Assembly: GCA_964016885.1 (NCBI GenBank)
Contig: OZ024750.1
Coordinates: 7,130,001-7,194,000, forward strand
Length of the DNA: 64,000 nt
Direction of reading: 5' to 3'
Source: Eledone cirrhosa
Lineage: Eukaryota
Both the position numbers and the translations under genes were made by a program. The notes under the pieces are model-generated. The model saw only the letters and a list, made by a program, of their open reading frames with translations. It did not search any database and was not told the DNA's origin. Below are positions 18,921 through 43,000 of this stretch, piece by piece. The first letter of the stretch is position 1. Each line of letters begins with the position of its first letter.

Positions 18921-19007
18921 TCAGGAGTTCCCTTCAGCTTTTAGATTACGAGGCATTTTCCTCTTGACCTTCTTTTCAGAAATGTTGAATGGTTGAAGAC
19001 AGAATAC
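18921..19007 (-). CDS. slo: Slo1 terminal coding exon (variant A)
   Basis: Acceptor ttcttgtttgtgttccaacag|, phase 0, [28 protein letters not shown]. Continues TDQ| like Drosophila TDQVFVLMQFD and vertebrate TDLIFCLMQFD. Confidence 0.85.
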   Translation of the reverse strand, partial: VFCLQPFNISEKKVKRKMPRNLKAEGNS

Positions 19008-22000
19008 CTGTTGGAACACAAACAAGAATAAATCAAATTATATGTTGACACTTCAAGAATAGTTTTATCACATATACACTCACTTAAACACAGTATAATT
19101 AAAACACAACACTTTTTTGATGACATTGCTGTTAAAACCCATTATATTTTATTCTTAAACACATAAAAGTTATTTTCATTTTATTATGATATTACCTACA
19201 TGTAAGACTGAATTGGTTACAAATAATAATAGAATGATGTACAGGGAGCTTTATACTATCTGATTGTTTTAGAGCTCACATTTTTACACCCATTTTTAGT
19301 TTTAAACCACCCTGGAGTAATCCTGTCTCAAAGTATGGGTACATTGGGCTGTGGTCTTGTCAGAAAGCTCATTAGGCTTAGAGGCCAATGTTAATTTATT
19401 TCTACTGTGGTTCTACTATATGAAGAGGCCCCTGTGAATTGGTTTGCCTAGGGGACTGTAATGCTGTTAAGATTACCTTTACCATGTTTAGGGGTGGACA
19501 TTAAAGATGAAATATATTCTTACCACTTACTTCATAGAGCATGATTTGTTACTGAAATATAAACCATGCTCAAACAATCCCTGATGGGTATTGGGAAGTG
19601 ACCACAGTTAAAAAGGGTACTCAATACATTAGTAGAGTATATGCATCCATATTTTATATAGAAATGACTTCTACTAGAAGCACTAGAACTGTCTAATTCG
19701 AATGAAACAGTTCTAGCTCTGTAGAAGTCATTGCAATCACATATACTTACACACATATACTCTTTCTCTCTTTGTTTCATTCTATTTCAACATAGTTTTA
19801 TAATTTGAATAAAGTCATAGATGCTACAAGAGAGCATATTGGCATATAATATAATGGGTTTCAAAAAATTTTTTATCAGTTTATACAAGTCATAAAACGA
19901 TGTTATTTTTCAATTATTAAAATAAGAGCATGTACACAATGATATCAAAAATATATTACAACGGATCCCAAACTAATTATACATCTCTCTCCCTCTCTTT
20001 ATATATATATACATATATATACACACACACACAAACATACATATGTGTGTGTATATATATATATATATATATATATAACGAAGGAAGTGTGGTAAGGAAC
20101 CAGGTGGACCATAACGCACCAGAGTACTCGATACTTTGGGTAGTAGAGTGGGTAATATATATATATATATATATATATATATATATATATATATATATAT
20201 ATATATGCATGTGTGGTTTGTGTGTATCTGCTGTTAAAATATTGATAATATTGAAAATATTGAAAAATACATTGTAAAAAATGTTTTTAATTGTTGAATA
20301 TCAAGAGTTCACATGAGATGTTAGTTTGATAAAGTGTTTTCTCAACACTTACATAATTAGTATGACAATTTATAATTTAAAATAATACAATTATGTGAAT
20401 TTTGAATTGGTACCTTATCCAGAAGCTGAACATATTAGAAATAAAAGAATAGGATTTTCATTTATAACACTCATGCTACAGTGGAAAATACTGATACAAG
20501 ATATCAATATTGAAACAAATATAAATGCAAAACTAATATTATGTACACAAACTCACACACGTTTACATACATGCATACATTATATATATTTATATATATG
20601 TATATATATATATATATGTATATATATATATGTGTGTATATATATATATATATATACACATATATATATATATACATGCATGTATATAAAAATATATATA
20701 TATATGTATATATGTATGTATATATGTATGTGTGTTTATATATATATACACACGCATATTTATAAATATATATATATATATATATTATATATATATAATG
20801 TATGCCTCTACACATGCATGCATACATCCAATAAAAAAACAATTTCCTAATATTACATGACATATTTATCACGAAATTTCTGTTCAAACTTAAGCAAAAC
20901 TGTTTCACCACAGTGCACAGCAAATAATGTAAACAAGATTGCCTTTCCAAATGACAATAATGTCAATGCCATTCCATTTTATACAGGCCATTTCACCAGA
21001 GAAAGAAGAAAATCCATATAGATTTAATTATAAGATTTCCTATTTATCCAATACTCATTTTAAAGTAGCTTTCAAGTAGTTTTCTTCAATTTCTTCTGAT
21101 ATAAAATATACATGATCTTTTTTTCACTGCAAGTCAAACAGCTTTATTAATTTATAAACTCATTATAAGATTAAACTTGTTGAATATATTTTCAGAAGTT
21201 ACTTAAAAAATTTTATTGAAAAATAAAGACAAAACAACAAAACTGAAAATACAGCCCCTGAAGAGTGAAAAATGAAATTAGATGATGATTAAATATGACA
21301 AACTTAAAGTCTTAAAAAAAAAAATCACACTAAAACAATAACATTTTTAAAAAGACAAAATTATATGTATATATATTTATTTTTATTACAGTTAATGGAT
21401 AAAATCTACTGTTTTAAAACGGCTTAAAAAAATGAGTGTATTGAATAGTTACAGAAAAAAATCAAAACAAAAAACAAAAATGTAAGTAATAATAATAAAG
21501 GCATCAACCCAGGCTAGATTATAGATGGAGATCTAAAATTAGAAATAAATAATAATTAAAAGCAAAAGAAAGAAAAATGTTTTTTTTTTTTATTGGAATA
21601 ATCTTAAAATTTCTTGAAAAGAGCATAAGGTATGAACTCCTTATAACATATTAAAATATTGAACAAAAGATATTAGTCAGGCATGTGATTAAAATTAAAA
21701 TCAATTTGAAAATGATAAATAAATGTAATTAAGGAATTTTAACAAGATCTGGAGTTTTAACTGATGAGGCCTAATAAACTATAAGAAAGAATTGTTTTAA
21801 AAAATATTTGATGATTTTTTGGCTATTAACCCTTTAGCATTGTATTTTTGCTATTGTATTTTTGTGGTAAAGGCTTTATCTCACATAATATTGAATCTAC
21901 AAGATTTTGATGGGGTTATTATTTATTTTGAGAAAAATACCTTAACTTTGAGAGAATTCTTGCCGGATATGTCTGATTTAAATGCTGAAGGGTTAAGAGA

Positions 22001-40000: not shown

Positions 40001-43000
40001 GGGCTCATTTGGGTATGATTGTATGATACTGAAAAAGAAATTAGCATAAAGGCATCATATATATATATATATAGTCCAAACCCATGCAAGCGTGGAACAC
40101 GGACGTTAAACGATGATGATGATGATGATGATGATGATATATATAATATATATATATATATATTTAATGTAGAAATAGCTTCTACAGGACTAAAAATGCT
40201 TCATTTGAAGGAAATCAACATTATATATTATATATATATAATTATCATATATATATTATAAATATATAATATATGTACATATCAAATAGGGTGTGGTAAA
40301 ATACCAGGTGGACCATAATCCACCAGAGTATTCGATACTTGGGGTAGTAGAGTGGGTAATATGAAAAGATTCAGGACCCTGTGGCTGAGCTTCAGCCGTT
40401 TCAACAGCTAGATCCGACATATATATACATATATATGTGTATATATATATATACACACACATATTTATATACATATATGTAGATGATGATGACATATATA
40501 TATATATACATAAGATACCTAGTACAGCGTTATGTAGATATAACTGTGGACATATCTAGATATAGCCATATATAGTACAGGTGTAACTGTGGACATGTTA
40601 AGATCTGAGATCTGGATGGACAACAAAATATGATAGAATGCGCTGTCACACTGGACCTCATGCAAACCAACCACATACAATGAACAGTATAATCCTATGT
40701 GTACAAGGCCATGTCAGGGTATTCAGTGCCCCACAATGTGTGCTCCCTTTTCAAATGTTATTTTTTACAACATCCAGCCACTACCCTCTTTATACCTGCT
40801 AAAAAATGTAGTAAAAAAAATTATAATTAACTTGTGAACAAGAAATGTATAGTTTTTATAATCATACATATTACCTGGTAAATATGTTACCTGGCAAAAA
40901 TTGAAATGTTTTACAGCAAATAATATGACAGGTCATAATACCTTGTGGCCCTCTCGTCTCCTCCACCCTACCTACCCCTGTCATCCAGGTACCCCTGTTT
41001 CAGGGGTGACCTTCCTTGCTCTCATTATAATTAATCTTTCATGTTTTTAGATTGATTAAGAAATTTTGTTGAAGTTGTTAACAATTTGTGTGGCATCTCC
41101 AGATTTTATCACCCAAAATGATCCCTTATTATCTAGTGCCACTAGCCCTGCATATAAGGCACAACCTCAATATATCCTAGTACCAGCAACCCTGCATATA
41201 AGACACAGCCTCAATATATCCTAGTACCAGCAACCCTGCATATAAGGCACAACCTCAGTATATCCTAGTACCAGCAACCCTGCATATAAGACACAGCCTC
41301 AATATATCCTAGAACCAGCAACCCTGCATATAAGACACAACCTCAATATATCCTAGTACCAGCAACCCTGCATATAAGGCACAACCTCAATATATCCTAG
41401 TACCAGCAACCCTGCATATAAGACACAGCCTCAATATATCCTAGTACTAGCAACCCTGCATATAAGACACAACCTCAATATATCCTAGTACCAGCAACCC
41501 TGCATATAAGACAGCCTCAATATATCCTAGTACCAGCAACCCTGCATATAAGACACAGCCTCAATATATCCTAGTACCAGCAACCCTGCATATAAGAGAC
41601 AGCCTCAATATATCCTAGTACCAGAAACCCTGCATATAAGACACTACCTCAATATATCCTAGTACTAGCAACCCTGCATATAAGACACAGCCATAACATT
41701 AAGCAATTGATTAGGGATTAGATTTTGTCTTCATTTCAACATTTGTTTTAATGTATAAATAACATAGACTGTGTGTGAGTGTGTATGCATTGTATATGTA
41801 TGTGCTTGTATGTATATGTGTATATATGGGTATGCATGCTTGAGTGTTCATGTGTGTGTGTGTGTGTGTGTGTGTGTGTGTGTGTGTGTGTGTGTGTGTA
41901 TAGAGTATGTGATTCAGAGAAGAGAAAACAAAAGCAAATAAGTTGACATTTCTAATTCATGTTTTACTTGTTCCATCTCTCTTTAGCTAATGATAGTAGT
42001 AGTAGTAGTAGTAGTAGTAGTAGTAGTAGTAGTAGTAGTAATGGTTTCTAATTGAGGCACAAGGCCAGCAATTTTTTTTGGTGGGGGAAGGGAAAGTCGA
42101 TTAAATTGACCCCAGTGGATTACTGGTACATTATTTTATCAACTCTGTAAGGATGAAAGGCAAAGCTAGCCTTGGTAGGATTTGAACTGAGAATGTAAAG
42201 GGCCATAATTCTATGCTGCAAAGCACGTTGTCTGACACTCTACTGTTTACTACTACTAATAATTGTTTCTACTTTTAGCATAAGGCCAGCAATTATCCCA
42301 GTGTATTACTGGTACTTTATTTTATCAACCCCGTAAGGATGAAAGGCAAAGTTAACCTCGGCGGGATTTGAACTCAGACCATAAAGAGCCGTAACTCTTT
42401 GCTGCAAAGCATGGCCTCTGACCCTCTACCGATACTGCCAATCCACACTGTCCTGAGAAGGACATTATCAATTGCAAGGACATTTACTGTTGTTTGTGCC
42501 TTTGTGGTATCATTTGTGTGACAATTGATTGTAAAATGTGTGTATTATCAAATTTTGCCTCCTCAGGTGCCAGGTTGACACTTGGCAGGATTTGAGAAAG
42601 AAGCAGAACTCAATGGAAGTTTTGAATAATAATAATAATAATAATAATAATAATAATAATAATAATAATAATAATAACTGTGTCTACTTTTGGCACAAGG
42701 CCAGCAATTATCCCAGTGTATTACTGGTACTTTATTTTATCGACCCCGTAAGGATGAAAGGCAAAGTTAACCTCGGCGGGATTTAAACTCAGACCATAAA
42801 CGGCCTGACTTCAAATCCCGCTGATGTTAATAATAATAATAATAATAATAATAACAACAATAATAATAAATCAGGAAATCAAACCAGATGAACAGACAAT
42901 TATATTTACCTGGTCTGTAGCTAATAGAGGAAATTCTTGTGAAGGATTCGTTATAACATAACGTTTTGATGATGGACTTTTTACAGTAGCGCTAGTATCT

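Follow-up and report, generated by a model that had tools for sequence, protein, structure and literature searches.

The 3′ part of the gene for the BK channel alpha subunit Slo1 (KCNMA1/slowpoke) lies on the minus strand of a 64,000-nucleotide (nt) stretch, herein called the window, of the 3.0-Gb genome of Eledone cirrhosa (window G+C content 29%). The window encodes RCK2 with its calcium bowl and the Slowpoke_C domain, with orthology to annotated Slo1; the assignment rests on these 3′ exons, those for the S0-S6 membrane domain and RCK1 lying upstream of the window. The last constitutive exon is 100% identical to Octopus bimaculoides Slo1, also matches the solved Aplysia, fly and human BK channels, and has a single match in the source genome. 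It ends with the residues TDQ in phase 0, and the intron that follows holds three phase-0 AG acceptors, at 19007, 31804 and 39757. An initial annotation made from the letters of the window was correct on the identity of the gene, the phase-0 TDQ end, the three acceptors and the peptides quoted for them. We are highly confident that the acceptors open a series of exons running C, B and then A. The features are listed below, with splice junctions marked by a slash.

42910..43080, minus strand: last constitutive Slo1 exon, 171 nt, phase 0-0, ends TDQ, donor CAG/gtaaat
39680..39757, minus strand: cassette exon C, 78 nt, phase 0-0, 26 amino acids, acidic, frame-preserving; acceptor ttag/, donor GAG/gtaaac
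31744..31804, minus strand: cassette exon B, 61 nt, phase 0-1, shifts the frame of A; acceptor ccag/, donor AAAA/gtaagg
31637..31743, minus strand: stretch beyond the B donor, the Ala/Thr tail of the initial annotation, probably intron, made up mostly of a triplet repeat (31662-31719)
18921..19007, minus strand: terminal exon A, main frame, basic tail of 28 amino acids, ends EGNS
18976..19005, minus strand: terminal exon A, shifted frame after B, ILSSTIQHF then stop, nine codons
18762..18767, minus strand: nearest AATAAA past the A stop by pattern scan, candidate poly(A) signal; others at 18505 and 17994
43687..48125, minus strand: six RCK2 exons further upstream, the calcium bowl among them, matching Octopus Slo1 at 97-100% identity by tblastn (approximate bounds 43887-43687, 44728-44597, 45490-45389, 46003-45800, 47155-46919 and 48125-47961)

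Exons A and B look duplicated because they share 35 of 54 nt without gaps, the highest count among the 1096 AG sites of the intron (next 27, mean 14.5); by hand count they also share 9 of 17 residues. Judged from this alignment, and as the initial annotation had proposed, B is likely an old duplicate of the start of A. Exon C shares 13/61 nt with A and 21/61 nt with B and has no visible duplicate relation to either. Acceptor sites were also ranked against a profile built from the stretch after TDQ in non-cephalopod proteins. Over eight residues A ranked 1st, B 2nd and C 23rd of 985 sites; over four or five residues A ranked 1st, B 4th and C 38th of 832 or 13th of 780. Given these low ranks, C is not recognisable by sequence alone and is established by its conservation (78% identity to Octopus proteins, 67% to Argonauta).

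Exon A is 83-86% identical both to Octopus proteins and to decapodiform-like tails, and B is 91-95% identical to Octopus sinensis models and 86% to decapodiform-like proteins; each has one match in the source genome. The initial annotation had looked to related species for a check, and there C, B and A all match annotated Slo1 isoforms, as conserved coding exons. It had also called the exons hidden. They are indeed absent from the open reading frame track of the window but present in the RefSeq models of O. sinensis and O. bimaculoides, and, with their isoforms already in such models, they are not undiscovered. The A-type terminal exon also occurs in gastropods, bivalves, Owenia, Lingula and Lineus; exon C was not seen among the non-cephalopod tails listed.

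Exon combinations in cephalopod relatives

Thirty-two cephalopod proteins were examined, comprising 15 of the 31 members of the Octopus cluster, 15 of the 17 in the cluster with Sepia pharaonis, and two singles. They end in C-A (10), A (6), C-B-A (5), B-A (4) or C followed by another ending (C-other, 3), and the remaining four have no 3′ end. Two or three exons are stacked in 19 of the 28 proteins with a 3′ end, and exon C is present in 18. C, B and A can each follow TDQ directly, and all four forms (A, C-A, B-A and C-B-A) occur among the nine O. sinensis models examined. The same exons and combinations are found in RefSeq and GenBank Slo1 models of O. sinensis, O. bimaculoides, Argonauta, Sepia, oysters, scallops, Mya and Patella. 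The models of O. sinensis X6 and O. vulgaris differ, in that their C-other endings have no counterpart in the window and no match at any downstream acceptor (best 19/62 and 14/72). A Sepia model ends three residues past C and looks like donor read-through.

All nine B-containing proteins continue into A in a shifted frame. In each, homology to the window ends after 20 codons at the donor at 31744, and the peptide resumes in another frame of A at 19005-18982; B is therefore a 61-nt cassette. Read-through of B into the Ala/Thr tail was seen in none of these nine, and none of the 28 cephalopod ends examined uses the third frame of A, which in the window runs for 21 codons without a stop. Eight Logan proteins on contigs of 1.2-5 kb end in A (3), B-A (3) or C-A (2), and are probably assembled transcripts, since their open frame crosses many exon joints. 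The first eight residues of the shifted A tail of the window recur unchanged in O. sinensis and in assembled proteins.

These data bear directly on the arrangement preferred in the initial annotation, an array of mutually exclusive last exons in which B ends in its own Ala/Thr tail. The ability of each exon to follow TDQ directly in relatives would fit that arrangement, as would the frame of B, open for 55 codons with an AATAAA at 31282 downstream (pattern scan), and the Sepia and Patella models whose ends resemble donor read-through (the Patella model stops right at the end of its cassette). We nevertheless consider it very unlikely. The annotation had missed the frameshift of A, which is the chief consequence of B, and had missed the donor of B, a GTAAG that stands exactly at the end of homology and past which none of the nine proteins reads. 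Equally long open frames occur at 17 of 144 donor-like site/frame pairs of the window. The stacking of exons speaks against mutual exclusion, and their phases differ (C 0-0, B 0-1, A terminal); A alone has its own stop, B and C having donors and continuing in relatives. A different possibility is that B and C are noise in E. cirrhosa, either conserved relics or rare mis-splicing. Both are known here from DNA, and the identity of C is low against the 97-100% of the constitutive exons, yet the splice sites, lengths and frames are intact and B is as well conserved as described above, which makes this explanation highly improbable.

The second frame of exon A in molluscs

The frame shift was followed into other molluscs with a two-frame test, which asks whether a single DNA string, read in different frames, could encode two tails of one species; the best-scoring offset and frame were chosen. 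In the frame used after B, every residue was matched for O. sinensis (10/10), the decapodiform-like proteins (10/10), Argopecten (26/26), Crassostrea virginica (30/30), Saccostrea cucullata (30/30) and Mya (24/24), with shuffles reaching at most 6-16. Nine other pairs gave merely 3/7 to 8/25, and the scan therefore does not match freely. Scores in that range led us to reject a shifted-A origin for the tails of Aplysia, Elysia, Bradybaena, Littorina, Babylonia, Nucella and Lineus, and for the two octopus C-other tails. Both frames of A occur in the isoforms of relatives and stop inside A, and the window holds the same frames and stops, consistent with a dual-coding exon.

The cassette itself can be followed into bivalves, where its identity to B is 58-67% over 12 residues. 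Lengths inferred from proteins put it at 61 nt for cephalopods and oysters; scallop, Mya and Dreissena have a 67-nt version, and 8/8 proteins checked keep to 3n+1. Searching proteins with the final 40 residues of a B-type sequence gave no candidates; a longer B-type query gave 16 matches and added Dreissena. The ten codons that open the main frame of A were compared through the O. sinensis and the decapodiform-like protein pairs. In both, the third position must be the letter of the window at eight codons, one further codon being ambiguous and one different, a count uncalibrated against neutral change in the DNA of the relatives. In cephalopods the shifted-frame stop is kept in place although the main-frame residue there varies. 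The shifted tail comprises 9-10 residues in cephalopods and 23-29 in bivalves. Judged from these proteins, the frame switch is common to cephalopods and bivalves, and old; the two lineages split in the Cambrian, approximately 500 million years ago.

The third frame of A is used in Mya (P0218 group; 10/10 after 131 nt of upstream cassette) and in Patella vulgata (P0161 group; 13/13 after an 80-nt cassette unlike B). Six Mya models were considered as cases of B read-through and rejected, their tails ending in the third frame of A. Elsewhere among gastropods there are alternative endings that do not come from a shifted A, the solved Aplysia form being one, and further alternative exons that also have a hydrophobic start; no exon of the gastropod type was recognisable in the intron of the window.

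Oyster proteins (P0193, P0304, P0089) carry an extra basic segment of 60-63 nt between B and A that keeps the shift of B, and some models end after it. E-x-x-S/T is a frequent ending of main-frame tails in gastropods, cephalopods and Owenia, and the EGNS end of octopus is also found in Daphnia. In oyster and scallop, E-x-x-T stands at the end of the shifted tail (7/7 listed). The E-x-x-S/T end is possibly a terminal binding motif.

The end of RCK2 and the role of exon choice

By the TrkA_C/RCK C-lobe fold, the residues after TDQ would form the last beta-strand. The constitutive exon covers positions 62-115 of the 121 of Pfam PF21014 (Slowpoke_C, TrkA_C-like), and the domain extends 4-5 residues into whichever exon follows TDQ, scoring 156.8 bits with A, 153.0 with B, 152.4 with C and 152.6 with the solved Aplysia form. 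Since the first 4-5 residues of each exon complete Slowpoke_C in this profile, the choice of exon likely exchanges not just the tail but the end of RCK2 too. The initial annotation had fitted all three exons to the last RCK2 element; this holds insofar as the profile-ending residues differ between isoforms, and is weakened by the low rank of C. The first seven residues are the most conserved part of C and of B.

On the human channel the TDQ junction falls at 1048/1049, within both PF21014 and the range modelled, and lies upstream of the branch point of the vertebrate tail variants, as had been claimed. The human cryo-electron microscopy (cryo-EM) model includes residues 871-1056, and removal of the 57 residues after 1056 left function unaffected (PMC6934384). 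Human 1049-1056 is the equivalent of the first eight residues after TDQ. By analogy these eight are probably ordered and the rest a free tail, since the human model reaches 1056 and the tail beyond is dispensable. AlphaFold2 models of C-A, built on one alignment weighted towards A and another weighted towards C to close the domain, gave no usable fold (mean predicted local distance difference test, pLDDT, 37 and 34), and a complex prediction of the RCK2 part with a C-containing tail scored 0.01.

We consider it probable that the locus carries two cassettes, C and B, before A, spliced as A, C-A, B-A and C-B-A with B shifting the frame of A, and that the choice sets the tail and, through it, surface delivery or partners. 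Splicing would choose C and B independently, and E. cirrhosa would make the same four messages as its relatives. The predicted ends after TDQ comprise 28 residues with net charge +5 (A), 54 with 0 (C-A), 30 with +1 (B-A) and 56 with -4 (C-B-A). Without B, the channel would end in the basic stretch and EGNS; with B, both would be lost and a nine-residue peptide would end the protein. The first 4-5 residues of the exon after TDQ would close the RCK2 C-lobe, and B, as a copy of the A start, would restore the domain-closing residues lost by the frameshift. A message with its stop codon in the last exon should not be a decay target, and as both stops lie there, neither message is expected to be one. 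We rank an effect of the tails on trafficking or binding partners first because vertebrate BK tail variants change surface expression, as described in two reports (PMC3642354, PMC4055454); on that analogy such an effect is an evenly balanced prospect. An effect on gating through the exchanged residues ranks second and would be rather less expected.

Two other views of the purpose of this arrangement deserve weight. B may merely cut short the basic tail of A, the shifted peptide having no role of its own; we regard this as a serious contender, if somewhat short of an even chance. The brevity of the cephalopod shifted frame, nine residues with a variable last one, agrees with it, as does the disparity of shifted tail lengths between cephalopods and bivalves, and the use of the third frame by Mya and Patella implies that any loss of the main frame may do. 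Set against this, B changed by 6 nt yet kept its 3n+1 length, the third codon positions of A are conserved, and the oyster and scallop shifted tails end in E-x-x-T like the E-x-x-S/T of many main-frame tails. The purpose might instead be gating, tuned by exchange of the last RCK2 element with the tails incidental. That the conservation of C and B peaks in their first seven residues, that the further alternative exons of gastropods likewise start hydrophobic, and that the equivalent human stretch is ordered while the tail beyond it is dispensable for gating (PMC6934384) would all suit such a purpose. The exchanges, however, are conservative (VFCL, VFSL, IICA) and alike in Pfam profile score, and the conservation may just reflect the need to complete the fold, which leaves this purpose doubtful.

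A number of points weigh against the reading of two cassettes that set the tail. Most of its support comes from automatic gene models whose underlying reads are not visible, and the junctions of E. cirrhosa are taken from other species. C-B-A was seen in O. sinensis models only, and the six O. bimaculoides models examined are all C-A. A read-through form could sit among the cluster members beyond the 15/31 and 15/17 examined. Part of the resemblance between A and B is confined to this lineage, for relatives have L or H at position 10 of A where the window has S. As a strand, C gives a weak score, and either C or the exon that follows it may complete the fold in C-containing forms. Finally, the shifted tail of cephalopods may end in F, S or T, a variability that speaks against a fixed binding motif at its terminus.

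More tentatively, this could be an ancient mollusc Slo1 switch, in which a duplicated A start closes the gating ring while reframing A to give up to three functional tails, and to which cephalopods added C. If so, exon choice would change the RCK2 fold and the tail together, so that both gating and targeting would be adjusted to the cell type, and the ring closure in the Aplysia structures would be just one among several.

Known systems and neighbouring features

As here, splicing in vertebrate Slo1/KCNMA1 (VEDEC, QEERL and EMVYR) alters the extreme C-terminus of the BK alpha subunit. Compared by position, the vertebrate variants are described as lying past the ordered region that ends at human 1056, whereas the mollusc switch branches at the equivalent of human 1048/1049, inside Slowpoke_C, and works by frameshifting the last exon. 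Vertebrate BK tail variants govern surface delivery and spare the gating ring; the mollusc splice choice would reach the last folded element of RCK2.

A frameshifting cassette or splice site before a dual-coding last exon is known from unrelated genes, namely splice site C of PMCA and C2/C2′ of GluN1. A literature search for the PMCA frameshift-cassette paper found none. Unlike these devices, B looks like a duplicate of the very exon start that it shifts, so that it replaces the residues removed. A full-text literature search gave no description of mollusc Slo1 3′ splicing or of a frame switch, most subscription papers lying outside its scope; this form of Slo1 C-terminal splicing, which departs from the model of the initial annotation, is real, conserved and apparently undescribed.

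The form of Aplysia Slo1 solved by cryo-EM (5TJ6, 9DIT and others) branches at the same junction, where VYVL opens an ending of no more than 12 residues. Reading A in a shifted frame does not yield this ending (4/12), and nothing in the window was recognised as its counterpart. This solved form (P0153-P0159) has a different end exon from four full-length RefSeq models (P0029, P0149-P0151), which are A-type. Elysia and Bradybaena have both end types, A-type and other.

The reuse of one exon in two or three frames is common to cephalopods and bivalves and paralleled in limpets. It offers four small, defined variants of a channel whose mollusc structures are solved, and a clear example of exon duplication and frameshift making new ends. 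Its significance is limited in that automatic annotations already contain the isoforms, other genes are known to use frameshifting cassettes, and the role of the tails is drawn by analogy.

Elsewhere in the Slo1 region of the window, two optional exons of the RCK1-RCK2 linker lie on the minus strand at about 61797-61708 (about 90 nt) and about 55291-55256 (about 36 nt). These and further linker cassettes upstream of the window are included or skipped among cephalopod isoforms. The intron after the TDQ exon holds minisatellites of 44 and 42 nt (41146-41689 and 34938-35204) and a two-copy 223-nt repeat (27964-28387); part of the latter is found again near 1800 and 42750 and resembles a common interspersed repeat. 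The Slo1 3′ region is bounded by a short small-GTPase exon on the minus strand at approximately 325-395, with a GLDDAGKT P-loop and a weak Pfam Arf match (E 0.0013, under the cut-off), which we take to resemble ARL13.

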